DNA of 13,107 nucleotides from IMG/VR virus record IMGVR_UViG_2648501150_000039. The stretch is one strand, 5' to 3'. Both the position numbers and the translations under genes were made by a program. Within the stretch, counting starts at the first letter, position 1; each line of letters begins with the position of its first letter. The notes beneath the pieces were generated by a model that was not told the origin of the DNA, ran no database searches, and worked only from the letters and a program-made list of their open reading frames with translations. Below, piece by piece: positions 1,448 to 13,107 of this stretch. This DNA is from a virus. Lineage: Duplodnaviria > Heunggongvirae > Uroviricota > Caudoviricetes.

Positions 1448-1473
1448 TTCTTCTTTCCCTTGGTTTGGGAGAA
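1448..1473. repeat. Left crossover site of invertible segment (gix/hix-like, about 26 bp)
   Basis: The reverse complement of 1458..1474 (CTTCTCCCAAACCAAGG) matches 3466..3482 (CTTCTCCTAAACCAACG) at 15 of 17 positions, in inverted orientation. The half-site TTCTCCCAAACC resembles the Hin/Gin half-site (TTCTTGAAAACC / TTATCCAAAACC as I recall them). The central dinucleotide is AA/TT. The site sits in the fibre reading frame and encodes G-L-G-E. Confidence 0.7.
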
Positions 1474-1959
1474 GGCTCTGCATTACCTGTTGGCGTCCCT
1501 GTTCCGTGGCCTTCAGCCACACCGCCAACAGGCTGGCTGAAATGCAATGGTGCAGCTTTTTCTGCTGAAGAATACCCGGAACTGGCAAAGGCTTATCCGG
1601 CAAATAAATTGCCTGATTTACGTGGTGAGTTTATTCGTGGCTGGGATGACGGACGGGGGATTGATACAGGTCGCTCTATTTTAAGTATTCAGGGGTATGC
1701 AACGGAGGATCATGCTCATGGATTACCGTCAAGATCCACGATTGTGACTGATGCAACGATTAATTTCTATTTTGATGAAAGCTGGGTAAATAGTGGCACT
1801 GACATTATCAAAAGAGGAAACACAAACGATGCCGGATTACCAGCACCGGATTATGGAACCTTTAAAACATATAAACAATCAGTGGCTGGTTTAGGTGCCG
1901 CAGCCTCAGAAACGCGTCCGCGTAATATTGCATTTAACTATATCGTGAGGTCAGCCTGA
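1465..1959 (+). CDS. Tail fibre C-terminal variable segment (Sv-like, tail-collar type); lacks the N-terminal constant part
   Basis: Translation contains tail-collar-like motifs (PTGWLKCNGAAFSAEEYPELAKAY, LPDLRGEFIRGWDDGRGIDTGR). The frame is open only from 1423 and has no upstream coding sequence to join. The stop overlaps the start of the next gene (TGATG). Confidence 0.8.
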   Translation: MGEGSALPVGVPVPWPSATPPTGWLKCNGAAFSAEEYPELAKAYPANKLPDLRGEFIRGWDDGRGIDTGRSILSIQGYATEDHAHGLPSRSTIVTDATINFYFDESWVNSGTDIIKRGNTNDAGLPAPDYGTFKTYKQSVAGLGAAASETRPRNIAFNYIVRSA

Positions 1960-2561
1960 TGCATAAAGCAATATTAAATAGTGAGCTTATTGCAACAAAG
2001 GCAGGGGATGTTACCGTTTATAACTACGATGGTGAAACACGGGAATATATTTCCACGTCAACTGAATATCTTGCGGTTGGCGTCGGTATCCCGGCATGTT
2101 CTTGTTTAGATGCGCCAGTTACACATAAAGCTGGTTATGCAATCTGCCGTTCTGCAGATTTTAACTCATGGGAATATGTGCCAGACCATCGCGGTGAAAT
2201 CATCTATAGCACCGAAACAGGAGAATCGAAAGAAATCACAGCTCCGGGTGATTATCCTGAAAATACAACCACTATCGCCCCGTTAACGCCATACGATGAA
2301 TGGGATGGTGAGAAATGGGTAACAGATACTGTGGCACAGCATAGCGCCGCAGTAGGCGCGGCAGAAGCACAGCGTCAGTCACTGATTGATAATGCAATGG
2401 CTTCCATTAGTCTGATTCAGCTGAAATTGCAGGCCGGACGGAATCTGACGCAGGCAGAAACCGCCCGACTTAACGCTGCGCTGGATTACATTGACGCGGT
2501 GACGGCAACAGATACCAGCACCGCGCCGGATGTCATCTGGCCTGAACTGCCGGAGGCGTAG
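1959..2561 (+). CDS. Tail fibre assembly protein (Tfa / P2 gpG / Mu U family)
   Basis: 200 aa, immediately downstream of the fibre variable segment. The C-terminal DVIWPELPEA matches the conserved Tfa C-terminal motif. Confidence 0.85.
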   Translation: MHKAILNSELIATKAGDVTVYNYDGETREYISTSTEYLAVGVGIPACSCLDAPVTHKAGYAICRSADFNSWEYVPDHRGEIIYSTETGESKEITAPGDYPENTTTIAPLTPYDEWDGEKWVTDTVAQHSAAVGAAEAQRQSLIDNAMASISLIQLKLQAGRNLTQAETARLNAALDYIDAVTATDTSTAPDVIWPELPEA

Positions 2562-2976
2562 GCCATTCAATATCTGGCGCACCGGAAGTATCGACCAGTT
2601 CCAGTGCGTCCAGATAATCCAGCCACAAATTATATTGCGCCAGTTCCTCACCTTTCAGGCGACCAATCGCCGCTTTACCAGGCCATTGCTTACTGTATAT
2701 GTATTCGTTGACCTGATTAATCAATTGCTGCTTTTCCAGTTCGGCTGCAGCAATTTGTTCCTCATGAGTTGGCGGTGGAATTTCCCCCCAGGTGGGAAGG
2801 CCATCATCACCCGCGATGCGTACTTTCCCTTGCAACGTTCTGTCTTCAATAAATTCCAGGTAAGTGTCATATGTCACTTCGACAACATCAGCAAGTTCCC
2901 ATCCGGCCTGTTCATATTTCGCCACATCATTTTTAGCGAAAAAACTATTTTTTGAGGCGCTATAAACCATTTCCAT
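2533..2976 (-). CDS. Alternative tail fibre assembly protein (Tfa', opposite orientation)
   Basis: 147 aa, convergent with the other tfa gene and overlapping its 3' end by 29 bp. The C-terminal DIEWPTPPAV matches the Tfa motif. This is the Mu U/U'-like arrangement. Confidence 0.8.
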   Translation of the reverse strand: MEMVYSASKNSFFAKNDVAKYEQAGWELADVVEVTYDTYLEFIEDRTLQGKVRIAGDDGLPTWGEIPPPTHEEQIAAAELEKQQLINQVNEYIYSKQWPGKAAIGRLKGEELAQYNLWLDYLDALELVDTSGAPDIEWPTPPAVQAR

Positions 2977-2977
2977 A

Positions 2978-3553
2978 TTAATACCCTACTGCAATATAAA
3001 AAACTGATTCACCAGCGTCCTGAGAACCTACCCCCGGAACGCCAGACCAGGTTTTGTTAATGAATGCAAAACTGGTATTACTCAGATCAGATGCTCTGTA
3101 CATCGGGCTGAACATCCAGTAGTTGGCTCCATATGTTTGTCCGAAAACAATGCCATAGCACTGATTTGTAAATGGCGTAGAAAATAATTTTCCACCAGTA
3201 CCAGCGATAGTCCCGAATCGCATCTGGAACCCATTCGGGAAATTAATTCCGCCTGCCGGTGAAGACCAGTAAGACATATCAGGTATTTGCCCAGCACTAT
3301 TTCCCACGTTTTTTGTTGCAACGGTTCCTAACCCAAGATTAGCTCTTGCGTCAGATTTATTTGTTAACTCATAAAGATTATTTGCCTTTTGAAGTGCTCC
3401 TATTATGCGTAAATCATCACCAGCGGCAACGGTTCCGACTGTCGTGCCCACATCCCTTTTCGCCGCTTCTCCTAAACCAACGTTTTCGTTTTTATCCCTA
3501 CCTATACCAACTCTGTATTTTTCACGAAACAAAGAGGATGTTTTTTTATGCAA
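2978..3553 (-). CDS. Alternative tail fibre C-terminal variable segment (Sv'-like)
   Basis: Open frame on the minus strand running through the right crossover site, where it encodes NENVGLGE (the same GLGE junction as the left site). It is glycine-rich and fibre-like, and lies immediately upstream of tfa' on the same strand. The tracked start is an artefact; there is no constant N-terminal region. Confidence 0.7.
   Translation of the reverse strand: MHKKTSSLFREKYRVGIGRDKNENVGLGEAAKRDVGTTVGTVAAGDDLRIIGALQKANNLYELTNKSDARANLGLGTVATKNVGNSAGQIPDMSYWSSPAGGINFPNGFQMRFGTIAGTGGKLFSTPFTNQCYGIVFGQTYGANYWMFSPMYRASDLSNTSFAFINKTWSGVPGVGSQDAGESVFYIAVGY
3467..3492. repeat. Right crossover site of invertible segment (gix/hix-like)
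   Basis: TTCTCCTAAACC-AA-CGTTTTCGTTTT; 3466..3482 is the inverted-repeat partner of 1458..1474. It lies 55 bp upstream of the invertase start codon. Confidence 0.7.
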
Positions 3554-4147
3554 ATTGGCTATATTCGTGTGTCAACAAATGACCAGAACACGGATTTACA
3601 ACGCAATGCACTGAACTGCGCAGGATGTGAACTGATTTTTGAAGATAAAATCAGCGGAACGAAATCAGCCAGACCGGGATTGAAAAAACTGCTCAGAACG
3701 CTATCAGAAGGAGATACGCTGGTTGTCTGGAAGCTGGACAGACTGGGCAGAAGTATGAAACACCTGATCACGCTTATTGAGGAATTGCGGGAAAAAGGTG
3801 TTAATTTCCGTAGTCTGACGGACAGCATTGACACATCAACACCCATGGGGCGTTTCTTTTTTCACGTCATGGGGGCTTTAGCCGAAATGGAACGTGAATT
3901 AATTGTAGAGCGTACACTGGCCGGGCTGGCAGCAGCACGCGCACAAGGACGCATTGGCGGACGTCGCCCGAAGTTGACAAAAGAACAACACGAGCAAATA
4001 GCGAGGCTGATTAAAAACGGTCATGACAGGAAACAACTGGCGATCATTTACGACATCGGCATATCGACGATTTATCGTTATCACCCTGTAGGCGATATAC
4101 AGGCTGAAGAAACAACCAGGCAGACTCAGGAAAATAAAAACCGCTAA
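3548..4147 (+). CDS. Site-specific DNA invertase, serine recombinase (Hin/Gin/Pin/Cin family)
   Basis: The N-terminus MQIGYIRVSTNDQNTDLQRNAL contains the catalytic serine motif of resolvase/invertases. A C-terminal helix-turn-helix region follows (GRRPKLTKEQHEQIARLIKNGHDRKQLAIIYDIGISTIYRY). AGAGGA lies upstream of the ATG. The gene is adjacent to the invertible fibre segment. Confidence 0.95.
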   Translation: MQIGYIRVSTNDQNTDLQRNALNCAGCELIFEDKISGTKSARPGLKKLLRTLSEGDTLVVWKLDRLGRSMKHLITLIEELREKGVNFRSLTDSIDTSTPMGRFFFHVMGALAEMERELIVERTLAGLAAARAQGRIGGRRPKLTKEQHEQIARLIKNGHDRKQLAIIYDIGISTIYRYHPVGDIQAEETTRQTQENKNR

Positions 4148-9755: not shown

Positions 9756-9912
9756 AGCTTTAGCCCCTTGTATCCGTTAAATGATTCGGCAACAATCATC
9801 ACCCACCACGCGCGTAATCTCACCCCTGTGCCGTTCTCCCGATCCGGCGACAACAAAAAGCAGTAACCCCCTCCGCACGCACATGCGACCATGCCGCACA
9901 GGGAGGGAACAG

Positions 9913-11022
9913 ATGACCGATACCACCATGCAATTGCTCAGTCAGGGCACAGACCCCGTGAAAATGCCGGATTTTGATATTCTCGCGGAGGGTAAAACGC
10001 TGTCAGGCGTGGCAGAGCGCCTGATGAGCCTGTCACTGACCGACAACCGGGGATTTGACGCGGACCAGCTCACCATCACGCTGGATGATGCGGATGGTCA
10101 GTTGCAGCTACCGCCACGGGGCGCGCGCCTGACGGTTCTCATTGGCTGGAAAGGAGAACCGCTGACAGAAAAAGGCACTTACATTGTTGATGAAATCGCT
10201 CACGAAGGACCGCCGGACAGGCTGACTGTTTCAGCCAGAAGCGCAGATTTTCGGGATGAATTTAACGTTAAACGTGAGGTGTCCTGGCATGATGTGACCG
10301 TTGAGCGTGTGGTATCCGCCATCGCTCATCGGTATGGTCTGAAACCGCAAATCAGCGAAATGCTGATGGATATCGAAATCGACCACGCCGACCAGACCGA
10401 AGAAAGCGATATGTCCTTCCTTACGCGCATGGCGGAAATGCTGGGCGCAATCACCACGGTAAAAAGCGGCAATCTGTTATTCATCATGCCAGGTGGTGGC
10501 GTGAACGCACAGGGCCAGCCGTTGCCATCGTTCGCCATCACACGCAGCAGCGGCGATCGCCATCAGTTCCGCATTGCTGACCGCGAGGCGTATACGGGGG
10601 TACGCGCTTACTGGCTTGATCTTAATTACGGGAAAAAGAAAAAAGTCAGCGTGAAACGCCGCAAACCGCCAAAACCCAAAAAGGAGAAAAGCAGCAGCCG
10701 TGAAGGTGATTATATGGAAGGCGCGGAAGGCAATGTGTTTGTGTTACGCAAGACTTATCAGAACGAGCAGGCAGCAAGACGCGCAGCGGCGGCAAAGTGG
10801 CAGCAGCTACAACGCGGAGCCGCATCATTTTCCATCACGCTGGCGCGTGGACGTGCAGAACTCTACCCCGAAATGCATGGCACGGTAACAGGATTTAAAA
10901 GCGAGATTGATAATCAGGACTGGATTATTGCAAAAGCCGAGCACACCATTGATAACAGCGGCTTTACCACGCAGCTTGAGCTTGAGGCAAAAATCCCGGA
11001 ATGGATAGCAGAAACAGCGTGA
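9913..11022 (+). CDS. Phage late control gene D family tail protein (P2 gpD-like)
   Basis: Long ORF; the likely start is the ATG at 9913, preceded by GGGAGGGAA (the tracked ORF starts upstream at 9781). Size is about 370 aa. The call rests on overall resemblance to P2 gpD as recalled and on its position next to the other P2 tail genes and ogr. Confidence 0.8.
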   Translation: MTDTTMQLLSQGTDPVKMPDFDILAEGKTLSGVAERLMSLSLTDNRGFDADQLTITLDDADGQLQLPPRGARLTVLIGWKGEPLTEKGTYIVDEIAHEGPPDRLTVSARSADFRDEFNVKREVSWHDVTVERVVSAIAHRYGLKPQISEMLMDIEIDHADQTEESDMSFLTRMAEMLGAITTVKSGNLLFIMPGGGVNAQGQPLPSFAITRSSGDRHQFRIADREAYTGVRAYWLDLNYGKKKKVSVKRRKPPKPKKEKSSSREGDYMEGAEGNVFVLRKTYQNEQAARRAAAAKWQQLQRGAASFSITLARGRAELYPEMHGTVTGFKSEIDNQDWIIAKAEHTIDNSGFTTQLELEAKIPEWIAETA

Positions 11023-11075
11023 ATGTCTTAAATGTATTAGTTCAGATATGTACTAGCAATAAACATAGTTAGAAA

Positions 11076-11091
11076 GGCCGCTAACGCGGCC
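11076..11091. terminator. Hairpin between convergent gpD and the 11114..12283 gene (possible bidirectional terminator)
   Basis: GGCCGC-TAAC-GCGGCC, a 6-bp GC stem with a tetraloop in an AT-rich context. It is located after both stop codons. The U-tracts are weak. Confidence 0.4.
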
Positions 11092-11113
11092 ATATTAATT
11101 AAAACTCCAGTTA

Positions 11114-12283
11114 CTAATATTGAGAAAGATAATCAGCGACTCCATCTGCAGGGTTTCGCCCACCAGTATAAATTGTGCCTAATTCTTGAGGTGTAACATA
11201 TGTTGTAGGCCAAATGGCCATATTTTTAAAATAGTTATCTATTTTTATTCTTTGAAGTTCTTTAAAGAGATAATCTTCTAAGTCATTTCTTTTTAGACAG
11301 TTAACATAATAAGCAGCCGCACTTGCTACTATATCTACAATTTGTAATTGAGGATACTCTTGTGATGAATGGAATGTCAAAGAACGAGCTTTAATTGGCA
11401 ATTCAAATTTTCTTCGATCATAACCATATGCCTCCGTAATTTTTGATATATCCATAAATTTATCAAAAATATCTTTCTTCTCTGTAATAGCTTTGGAATC
11501 GTCATGCTTAATATAAAAACCATTAGGGTATAATTTACCCCATTCTACACAGTGTCTAAAGAGGCTTGGTATAGATGGATCTAATGTGCTTTTCTCAACA
11601 CCTTCCAATATATCATCAATATCGCTTCTGGTAATACTAATTCTGTTTATTATATCTGTGAATATCTTATCACTTGAGCATATCTTTAACTCATCAATTA
11701 CCCTGTAAAATTCATCAATTGACTCAGTCGATTGGCTTCTGATCATATTCATAAAACACTGATACATTACCTCTGTTTTTTCCTCCCCACAGAAAGCAGG
11801 GAAACAGAAATAGTAAACATTAGACAGAGCTAGATTCTGTCCATTTATATAAAGATCTATTCCTCTATTAGAGCACCACGTCTCGATCAAAATATCAACA
11901 ATCTTTGCTGTTAGCATGTATTTTTTATCGACCAAGTATATTTTAACATTCTCTTCATTGACATATTTGCTTTCAAGAAGCCTAATGATGCCATCCTGAC
12001 CAGATTTTCTACGTCTAAGAGTTTTAAAGTGGGCTTCTGTTGGAGACTTGCTTCCGGTTAGTTCTAATGCCTTAAGCGCATCCTGTTTACTAATACTACT
12101 TGAACTTAAGGTAAAAACAGGTTGCAATGGATCGAGTAAATTTCCGCCAGTATTACCTGATTCATCAAAAAATATATCAGGCTTTATATACAACATTTTA
12201 TTTATCTTTGCCGCTAAGTTTCTTTTTTTCTCATTTTCTCGCTTAATTTTATTATCTCGCCTACGTTGACTATTCTTTCCCAT
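11114..12283 (-). CDS. Hypothetical protein, AT-rich cargo gene; possible DUF3800-like family (motif-level recall only)
   Basis: 389-aa uninterrupted ORF antisense to both gpD and ogr. K/R-rich N-terminus, then DIFFDESGNTGG; near the C-terminus QLQIVDIVASAAAYY. These resemble the DESG and Q-x-x-(A/V)-D signatures I associate with DUF3800. Codon usage is strongly AT-biased, unlike the flanking phage genes. Confidence 0.65.
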   Translation of the reverse strand: MGKNSQRRRDNKIKRENEKKRNLAAKINKMLYIKPDIFFDESGNTGGNLLDPLQPVFTLSSSSISKQDALKALELTGSKSPTEAHFKTLRRRKSGQDGIIRLLESKYVNEENVKIYLVDKKYMLTAKIVDILIETWCSNRGIDLYINGQNLALSNVYYFCFPAFCGEEKTEVMYQCFMNMIRSQSTESIDEFYRVIDELKICSSDKIFTDIINRISITRSDIDDILEGVEKSTLDPSIPSLFRHCVEWGKLYPNGFYIKHDDSKAITEKKDIFDKFMDISKITEAYGYDRRKFELPIKARSLTFHSSQEYPQLQIVDIVASAAAYYVNCLKRNDLEDYLFKELQRIKIDNYFKNMAIWPTTYVTPQELGTIYTGGRNPADGVADYLSQY

Positions 12284-12515
12284 AAATACCTCACAATCTG
12301 AATTAGATATCCCAATTTAACGCATTAATAACATAATGTTATGATATCACACAATCAAAATAACGTGCTGATTTTAATGTATCAGGTTTGACTAGCTATT
12401 CTTTGATAAGCGAATAATAAGAATGTCAGCCCCTCAACTCAAAGCGGTTTAGTCAGTTGGAATCGGAGCTAGTAGAACTTAAAATAACAGAAGCACCACG
12501 TTAAGGGAGGTCTCT

Positions 12516-12776
12516 ATGTTCCGTTGTCCGCTTTGTGGCGCATCTGCCCGTATCCGCACAAGTCGTCCGGAAAATGATTCAAACACCGTGCGGCAAAAGT
12601 ATTACCAGTGTAACAACCTGGAATGCGGCGTATGCTTCTCAACACTGGAAGCCTTCCATAAATTCACATCAAAACACGCCTCCGCCGTTCACTCTTCAGA
12701 AGGTATCCCGTGGCATGAGCTGCCAGCTTCACACAGGGGAAACAATCAGATGAGTTTGCCTTTACCTCAGAACTAA
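12516..12776 (+). CDS. ogr: Ogr/Delta-family zinc-finger late transcription activator
   Basis: The N-terminus MFRCPLCGASARIRTSR ... YYQCNNLEC gives a C-x2-C ... C-x4-C zinc-finger spacing close to P2 Ogr (MFHCPLC ... CQNVNC). Strong SD AAGGGAGG lies upstream. It sits downstream of gpD, as in P2. Confidence 0.85.
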   Translation: MFRCPLCGASARIRTSRPENDSNTVRQKYYQCNNLECGVCFSTLEAFHKFTSKHASAVHSSEGIPWHELPASHRGNNQMSLPLPQN

Positions 12777-12836: not shown

Positions 12837-13100
12837 ATGGTCGGAGGGAATACCCGAAGGCCAGATGTGGAAAGGCCCCGGAAAACATCTCTGTTTAACC
12901 GAGGCCCTAACCGCATTACCTTGACAAGTGAAAGGTTAGCGCCTCTCCGGAAAAGGAGCAAGTGCTATGTCGCAAAAATCGCTTACGGCCATCACGTTCT
13001 GCGTGACGGCAATCCTCATCATCTGGATGCTGCACGGTTCACTGTGCGAAATACGGATGAGCTTCTGGGGAGCGGAGTTTGCGGCGTTCTTACAGTGTAA
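12837..13100 (+). other. mok-like overlapping reading frame (possible translational-coupling ORF for the hok-family toxin)
   Basis: 87-codon ORF in a different frame that overlaps almost the whole toxin ORF and ends 7 nt before it. This is analogous to mok in hok/sok loci, but may be fortuitous. Confidence 0.3.
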
Positions 13101-13107
13101 GCAGTAA
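12967..13107 (+). CDS. Hok/Gef-family type I toxin (small membrane peptide)
   Basis: Manual translation gives the 46-aa peptide MSQKSLTAITFCVTAILIIWMLHGSLCEIRMSFWGAEFAAFLQCKQ. It has an N-terminal transmembrane helix, then SLCEIR and EFAAFLQCK, matching the Hok-family signature (compare Hok ...SLCEIR...EVAAFMAYE). AAGGAG lies 8 nt upstream. It was not in the ORF track because it is under 60 aa. The stop is the last codon in the window. Confidence 0.75.
   Translation: MSQKSLTAITFCVTAILIIWMLHGSLCEIRMSFWGAEFAAFLQCKQ

Follow-up and report, generated by a model that had tools for sequence, protein, structure and literature searches.

A stand-alone DUF3800 gene at a variable cargo junction between gpD and ogr in P88-like prophages of Escherichia coli

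The D-ogr locus and its cassette

The DNA considered here is a stretch of 13,107 nucleotides from a virus of the class Caudoviricetes (IMG/VR record IMGVR_UViG_2648501150_000039; the whole stretch is referred to below as the window), and the element in question is a single gene for a protein of the DUF3800 family that lies between two core phage genes, gpD and ogr. In the open reading frame (ORF) list of the window, this gene is a 389-aa ORF with an ATG start on the minus strand (11114-12283), a stand-alone coding sequence flanked on the left by gpD (tail / late control D; 9781-11022, plus strand; PF05954, E=4e-17) and on the right by ogr (late-gene activator with an Ogr/Delta zinc finger; 12516-12776, plus strand; PF04606, E=5e-14). 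Its GC content is 0.332 against 0.504 in the remaining window, and the local values are 0.31-0.35 across approximately 11000-12500, 0.52-0.59 in D, and approximately 0.5 in ogr. An earlier note on this DNA had described an AT-rich antisense gene of this length between gpD and ogr and had added that in P2 the D gene is followed directly by ogr; both statements stand, the gap in P2 itself being 81 nt long and containing the ogr promoter. The note's description of the phage as P2-like is right as to family, but the flanks of the gene are those of Escherichia phage P88 and its relatives (Xuanwuvirus, Peduoviridae; 96-97% identity) and the layout is not that of P2, with the sheath, tube, E, tape measure, and U genes (FI-FII-E-T-U) encoded on the minus strand and transcribed divergently from D. 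Over its whole length, the window matches prophages of complete E. coli chromosomes at 99.8-100% identity, those of O104:H4 strains among them.

The DUF3800 cassette is an insertion relative to P88, in which D leads straight into ogr: in the alignment of the two, homology stops just past the D stop codon (~11033) and restarts ~40 nt before the ogr start (~12477). Boundary alignments place the whole cassette, which is missing from P88, at 11034-12476 (~1.44 kb), and it is bordered by imperfect direct repeats, CTTAAAT (11027-11033) and CTTAAAA (12477-12483). Beyond the 3' end of the gene, a scan for terminator-like structures found a GC-rich hairpin, GGCCGCGTTAGCGGCC, with 6 G-C pairs (11076-11091, minus strand), which is also kept 3' of the Klebsiella homolog; on the minus strand, a T-rich tract, TTTCTAACTATGTTT, comes after it. 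Because of this tract and of the conservation in Klebsiella, we consider the hairpin to be the probable intrinsic terminator of the DUF3800 gene itself; it may act in both directions, ending transcription of D as well.

On the other side of the gene, 232 nt (12284-12515) hold no coding sequence and are promoter-like in character, with the last ~60 nt belonging to the ogr side; the earlier note had recorded both this control region and the hairpin. The 5' region of the cassette (12284-12456, minus strand) is conserved with the Klebsiella copy and carries a ribosome-binding site, GAGG, 7 nt upstream of the ATG, together with promoter-like elements. Among these is an extended -10, TGATATCAT (plus-strand positions 12341-12349), with a counterpart, TGATATTAT, upstream of the Klebsiella copy; that the two represent a conserved promoter element is our own reading of the upstream alignment. 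In all, the Klebsiella copy, with a protein 85% identical, shares the 3' hairpin and ~150 nt ahead of the start codon, which indicates that the mobile unit consists of promoter, coding sequence, and terminator. The ogr-proximal block (12457-12515, plus strand) is common to all cargo-bearing variants and contains the ogr ribosome-binding site and, just upstream of ogr, a sigma-70-like match, TTGGAA-17-TAAAAT (12457-12485); since the ogr promoter of P2 sits in the D-ogr gap, this block is probably the ogr promoter, kept to the right of the cargo. Part of it (12459-12485) loosely resembles the 3' end of D (10999-11033), and in P88 the single copy spans the junction (ACTTAGAATAGCG), a pattern that suggests either duplication of the ogr promoter region at cargo acquisition or formation of the empty sites by deletion between repeats.

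The non-coding parts of the cassette were also searched for a companion to the gene. All ORFs of at least 20 aa (20-73 aa) overlap DUF3800, D, or ogr, and none that could encode a toxin or antitoxin partner lies wholly in the non-coding parts. Rfam models, including the DUF3800-I to -XI motifs, gave no match at the gathering threshold in the window and none at E<=10 in 10900-12700; the DUF3800 RNA motifs were likewise not found beside five homolog loci, and the structure of the upstream RNA does not exceed that of shuffled sequence (z=+0.77). On these results, and because conservation of the non-coding flanks stops at the close Klebsiella copy, a companion noncoding RNA (ncRNA) was rejected. 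The arrangement is that of a moron-type cassette, with its own promoter, one coding sequence, and its own terminator, in the D-ogr hotspot of a P88-like prophage, and because the gene is convergent with D, it would be expressed in the lysogen independently of the late operon.

Occupancy of the D-ogr junction

The segment from the sheath gene to ogr was searched in 5426 complete E. coli genomes and was present in 1471, and occupancy was scored in a sample of 43 evenly spaced junctions having both D and ogr. Twenty-six of these (~60%) were empty, with a span of ~2768 bp, 16 contained a cargo gene, and one contained an insertion sequence (IS); each of the 16 occupied junctions held one of at least eight cargo types. 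The boundaries are the same in all cargo-bearing variants, with ~30 nt in common at the left end and ~60 nt at the right. D-ogr is a genuine hotspot, and the DUF3800 gene is, as had been proposed, an insertion at a variable cargo site. At least eight other cargos take the place of DUF3800 at this junction. A DUF2971 protein of 261 aa matches the PADLOC candidate system PDC-S31 (E=5e-27), and a protein of 340 aa matches HEPN_RiboL-PSP weakly; further cargos encode a PIN_4 protein (500 aa), a ParA-like ATPase (352 aa), and a protein with a SEC-C motif (379 aa). Among those without a family are a 221-aa protein in enteropathogenic E. coli (EPEC) E2348/69 and a 132-aa protein; phage 500465-2 has a 340-aa minus-strand ORF at the junction and phage 520873 a 132-aa ORF. 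These alternative cargos are candidates in their own right.

The DUF3800 cassette itself was found in 36 of the 5426 genomes, always as a single chromosomal copy at the same site and with at least 99.9% identity. In the 2011 O104:H4 outbreak lineage (2011C-3493, C227-11, HUSEC2011, and others), an IS5-like element, ISKpn26, lies between the cassette and ogr (site ~12472, ~45 nt upstream of the ogr start) and probably separates ogr from its promoter; the 2009 O104:H4 strains are without it. The copy number and position of the cassette bear on the idea that it is a small transposable element whose protein is a transposase or integrase of the DDE/DEDD type. This idea, to which we give very little credence, was rejected because the cassette has no terminal inverted repeats and because all 36 E. 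coli carriers have one copy at one site. Moreover, unrelated cargos use the same junction and flanks, so that the site and not the gene explains the insertions; the best structural matches of the protein are to RNase HII/HIII, and in Shewanella and Yersinia the homolog is accompanied by a separate IS or Tn3 transposase.

Published accessory hotspots of P2 elements are gpA-gpQ (old/tin), the tail-gene Z/fun site, int-att, and int-primase (PMC9122126; PMC13586616), and neither of these two papers mentions ogr or gpD. The iLund4u preprint (bioRxiv 10.1101/2024.10.15.618418) reports a 'third hotspot' in P2-like phages between a tail protein and CI, which probably overlaps the D-ogr position; the earlier note's view of the position as non-classical therefore holds with respect to the two main P2 hotspot papers, but the position is partly on record. 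The junction resembles the accessory hotspots of P2-like phages in being a fixed core-gene junction with mutually exclusive, AT-rich, single-gene cargos, several of which are nuclease-like or PADLOC candidates, and differs from them in its location at D-ogr within the P88-like (Xuanwuvirus) lineage, in which the tail module is arranged otherwise than in P2.

Family, conservation, and predicted fold

The protein matches Pfam DUF3800 (PF12686) with E=3.5e-10 and 41.2 bits against a gathering cutoff of 21, the match running from position 2 to 148 of the 149-position profile and from aa 37 to 325 of the protein, and no other Pfam family was matched. In PHROGs it belongs to phrog_12991, a family of unknown function, in RefSeq it is labelled 'DUF3800 domain-containing protein', and in NCBIfam it has no match. 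DUF3800 is defined by an N-terminal DE and a C-terminal QxxD motif (PMC7736814), which are present here as D40-E41 and Q314-I-V-D317, and the segments FFDESGNTGG and QLQIVDIV occupy family-invariant positions. The motifs that the earlier note had thought DUF3800-like are thus those of the family, and no housekeeping or structural family took in the product in Pfam, PADLOC, NCBIfam, PHROGs, or a PDB sequence search; the note's term 'undescribed' is qualified by the RefSeq label and the PHROG, which already exist.

Full-length homologs (387-400 aa) share 65-86% identity with the protein in Enterobacterales and 44-51% in Pseudomonas, Vibrio, Aeromonas, Shewanella, and others, and PF12686 was found in all 120 of the listed homologs covering most of the query. 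An exhaustive profile search recovered 425 clusters (50% identity) at E<=1e-30 and 1762 at E<=1e-3. Most of these relatives are 355-370 aa long and start at approximately profile position 35, from which it follows that the N-terminal helix (aa 1-32), rich in K and R as had been remarked from the sequence, is specific to this clade. Among 42 members that are 25-47% identical, D40, K120, E134, F177, W248, S307, D317, and P359 are invariant and E41, G43, G46, Q54, E83, D130, D261, and Q314 are at least 90% conserved. Comparison with the Klebsiella, Yersinia, Proteus, and Shewanella copies gave dN/dS values of 0.08-0.20, which, at the level of sequence, place the gene under strong purifying selection.

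The predicted structure consists of the K/R-rich N-terminal helix followed by an RNase H2-like core (strands 36-40, 56-62, 113-119, 256-261, and 284-305; helix 311-331), which is interrupted by a helical insert (aa 120-251). The top structural matches of this model are RNase HII/HIII and not transposases; in Foldseek searches against PDB and BFVD, RNase HII and phage DUF3800 proteins ranked first, with nothing significant (E > 0.001). The predicted RNase H-like fold is a remote resemblance that agrees with earlier models of other DUF3800 proteins (PMC7736814; PMC10910872). Six residues are candidates for metal binding, with D40 and E41 at the end of strand 1, D130 and E134 on the next helix, D261 at the end of strand 4, and D317 on the C-terminal helix; judged by secondary structure, these conserved acidic residues are placed as in an RNase H-type metal centre and would form a putative active site. 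The most probable fold for the protein is that of a metal-dependent nuclease like type 2 RNase H. In passing the Pfam threshold, in its DE and QxxD motifs, and in its RNase H2-like predicted fold it is like other members of DUF3800 (PMC7736814, PMC10910872), and it is unlike them in that the Pfam model is stretched over so long a segment, because the ~130-aa helical insert splits the core, and in that the gammaproteobacterial clade adds the N-terminal helix, missing in most of the ~360-aa relatives.

Membership of the RNase HII sequence family was rejected, as the protein has no match to Pfam RNase_HII and no PDB sequence relative by profile search, and hhalign against E. coli RnhB gave a probability of 0.3. 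Compared with type 2 RNase H proteins (HII, HIII, and eukaryotic H2A), the sequence identity is 8-12%, the GRG motif is replaced by GNTG, and the protein has in addition the large helical insert and an extra conserved acidic pair, D130/E134, on the helix after strand 3. A 'catalytic rearrangement' has been ascribed to DUF3800 by Altae-Tran et al.

The resemblance to RNase HII/HIII, which are housekeeping repair enzymes, raises the question of a role in host physiology outside mobile-element conflict, such as RNA turnover, repair of ribonucleotides in DNA, or stress adaptation, and the lack of a match to any defence model fits such a role; a silent passenger would be a further variant, for which the AT-rich composition could be a sign of silencing. 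We consider both unlikely. The distribution of the gene is sporadic and bound to mobile elements, as seen in its low frequency among the E. coli genomes; there is no sequence-level relation to RNase HII; and strong purifying selection (dN/dS ~0.1) is not what a silent passenger would show. E. coli, furthermore, already has rnhA and rnhB.

Genomic contexts and candidate roles

DUF3800 proteins are known from several systems in which they have partners. The effector of retron type VII is a DUF3800 protein, in subtypes VII-A1 and VII-A2 (Mestre et al. 2020, PMC7736814), TPR-DUF3800 accessory proteins are CRISPR-associated at Cas12a2/Cas12a3 and VI-F loci (PMC10910872, PMC13594972, PMC12669027), and eleven ncRNA motifs, DUF3800-I to -XI, are associated with the domain (Weinberg 2017). 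The protein described here is not that of a retron type VII, since there is no reverse transcriptase (RT) or msr/msd in the 13-kb window or beside the homologs examined, and since the Q of QxxD is retained, whereas the retron-linked proteins are without it (PMC7736814). The ~16 ORFs of at least 120 aa scanned in the window were tail genes, regulators, an invertase, or unassigned, with no match to any RT family, and the sole RT seen in the homolog contexts examined is that of a group II intron ~1.1 kb downstream in Agarivorans. With the TPR-DUF3800 proteins it has in common the DUF3800 RNase H-fold module, which in their case stands within an immune locus; it is not one of them, being encoded alone and lacking a TPR domain, and neither cas genes nor a CRISPR array occur in the window. 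The protein resembles the retron and CRISPR DUF3800 proteins in its domain and in the company it keeps, and differs from them in its partner-less state, its helical insert, and its basic N-terminal helix.

Homologs were found in a wide range of mobile and defence-related contexts; these neighbourhoods were compared qualitatively, with no background control. In Klebsiella, the homolog is in an integrase island at smpB/ssrA and adjoins a trio of TerB_N, BrxD-like ATPase, and DEAD-helicase genes and an AAA_15/21+HNH pair; in Aeromonas, it is flanked within an integrase island by a TIR_2 protein and by HamA with a helicase; in Vibrio cholerae, it adjoins a type I restriction-modification (R-M) operon and an integrase; and in Pseudomonas fluorescens it adjoins a TIR/SEFIR protein. 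The Serratia homolog lies in an AlpA/YfjJ-type island, that of Proteus at the distal end of a lambdoid prophage tail module, and those of Yersinia on Tn3 and plasmid backbones, while in Shewanella the gene is a solo, IS-linked insertion between housekeeping genes and is found on plasmids too. No neighbour is conserved across the homolog contexts examined, from which we conclude that the protein works alone or with host factors.

Several further loci carry DUF3800 genes with particular neighbours. In Yersinia enterocolitica, an FRG-domain protein (451 aa) and a 191-195-aa protein with no family always precede the DUF3800 gene, on four different Tn3 or plasmid backbones, and these neighbours appear in no other context; the trio might be a module of three genes or no more than a block that was mobilised together. 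P2-type Escherichia phage 899 has a distant DUF3800 protein (348 aa; Pfam 26.3 bits) in the Z/fun hotspot, between the tail-fibre assembly and sheath genes, together with a 461-aa protein with a weak AHJR-like restriction endonuclease match. An entry 'StbA + DUF3800 + Plasmid_stab_B' is listed for the gpA-gpQ hotspot (Rousset 2022 Table S5). Lastly, transposon sequencing (Tn-seq) of Legionella pneumophila scored a DUF3800 gene as essential, together with antitoxin genes; this gene is specific to the strain, and its region is variable, with transposase/integrase genes close by (bioRxiv 10.1101/2020.10.01.323287).

These loci, in particular the last two, are relevant to the view of the cassette as a selfish or addiction element, whose product would be a toxic nuclease or an antitoxin-like stabiliser of the carrier element with no specific anti-phage role. 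A solo cassette moving among prophages, islands, plasmids, and transposons would fit this view, as would the bracketing of a P2 hotspot DUF3800 gene by plasmid-stability genes, the Legionella essentiality, and the hok/mok killer locus nearby in the window, but the cassette has neither a partner ORF nor a structured RNA to serve as toxin or antitoxin, and the homologs have no neighbour in common. We therefore hold this view to be improbable, noting that addiction and defence by abortive infection can both hold. About as improbable is a function that serves the phage, either as a counter-defence nuclease (against retron multicopy single-stranded DNA (msDNA), R-loops, or guide RNAs) or as an enzyme of the lytic cycle or of satellite competition. 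Prophage hotspots do also carry anti-defence genes, Anti_RM and Anti_CRISPR having been found in 28 P2 elements (PMC13586616), msDNA and other RNA-DNA hybrids would be plausible substrates for an RNase H-like enzyme, and the Proteus homolog resides in a prophage. However, most homologs lie outside phages, on chromosomal islands, plasmids, and transposons and next to R-M, HamA/helicase, ATPase+HNH, or TIR genes, where such a role makes little sense; the gene runs convergently to the late operon, with a promoter and a terminator of its own, as is typical of lysogenic-conversion genes; and it is dispensable, given that ~60% of related prophages are without any cargo.

The reading that we prefer, if by a modest margin over its being wrong, is that the gene encodes a stand-alone and probably active metal-dependent RNase H-like nuclease, carried as prophage cargo in mobile-element conflict and most likely serving lysogen defence, with the anti-phage role drawn from genomic context. 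On this interpretation, the protein would act alone, without the RT/msDNA, CRISPR RNA, or ncRNA partners of other DUF3800 proteins, and would protect the lysogen from other phages and mobile elements by cutting nucleic acid made during infection. Its substrate might be a structured RNA or else a hybrid or junction of RNA and DNA, both of them guesses based on the resemblance to type 2 RNase H and on the known partners of DUF3800 proteins (retron msDNA, CRISPR RNA, and ncRNAs). Four points weigh against lysogen defence: no DUF3800 protein has been put to experimental test so far; PADLOC v2 returned no family at a cutoff as loose as E<=1; the AT-rich gene may be silenced by H-NS; and the Legionella essentiality hints that some DUF3800 proteins may restrain something toxic and not be dormant effectors.

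Other features of the window and of related prophages lie outside the cassette. The gpD gene is annotated inconsistently in RefSeq for these prophages, some records having a 266-aa 'VgrG/Pvc8 family' coding sequence that overlaps with a pseudo 'hypothetical protein' and others showing 'late control D' as a coding sequence of 366-369 aa; the gpD ORF of the window is uninterrupted over 413 codons, and in the O157:H7 lineage D is interrupted by IS30. Toward the left of the window, a serine invertase (3548-4147, plus strand; Resolvase+HTH_7, E=1.5e-51) is accompanied by a tail-fibre collar fragment (1465-1959), a tail-fibre assembly gene (1959-2561), and opposite-strand ORFs at 2533-2976 and 2978-3553, and the region as a whole (1465-4147) looks like an invertible host-range segment of the Gin/Cin type; no inverted repeats of at least 18 nt were found around it at the settings used. 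Directly after ogr, a hok/gef-family toxin gene (12967-13107, plus strand) runs to the window edge and is overlapped by a mok-like ORF (12837-13100); this segment (12837-13107) is ~80-83% identical to loci of many Shiga toxin (Stx)-converting phages, and no Sok-type RNA was found there at the Rfam threshold.

The problem posed by DUF3800 dates back to at least 2017, and the domain has links with eleven ncRNA motifs, retron type VII, and several CRISPR subtypes. A nuclease-like cargo in a prophage hotspot will not surprise specialists, and if the gene is not defensive, it is an ordinary prophage moron of unknown function; it is, all the same, a credible anti-phage defence candidate. A partner-less DUF3800 gene that E. 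coli itself carries, the O104:H4 outbreak lineage included, offers the simplest system for testing the function of the domain, and the populous D-ogr cargo junction documented here had barely been described before, with most of its cargos uncharacterised. We put forward tentatively, as possible but less probable than the broader defence role, that a type of single-gene immune system has this gene as its founding member, and that its RNase H-like DUF3800 nuclease would itself both sense and destroy infection-specific nucleic acid, e.g., the RNA-DNA hybrids of replicating phage DNA, without any partner. If so, this would be the first biochemical function assigned to DUF3800, and the D-ogr junction of P88-like prophages, which is found in approximately a quarter of complete E. 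coli genomes, would be a new source of single-gene defence candidates.

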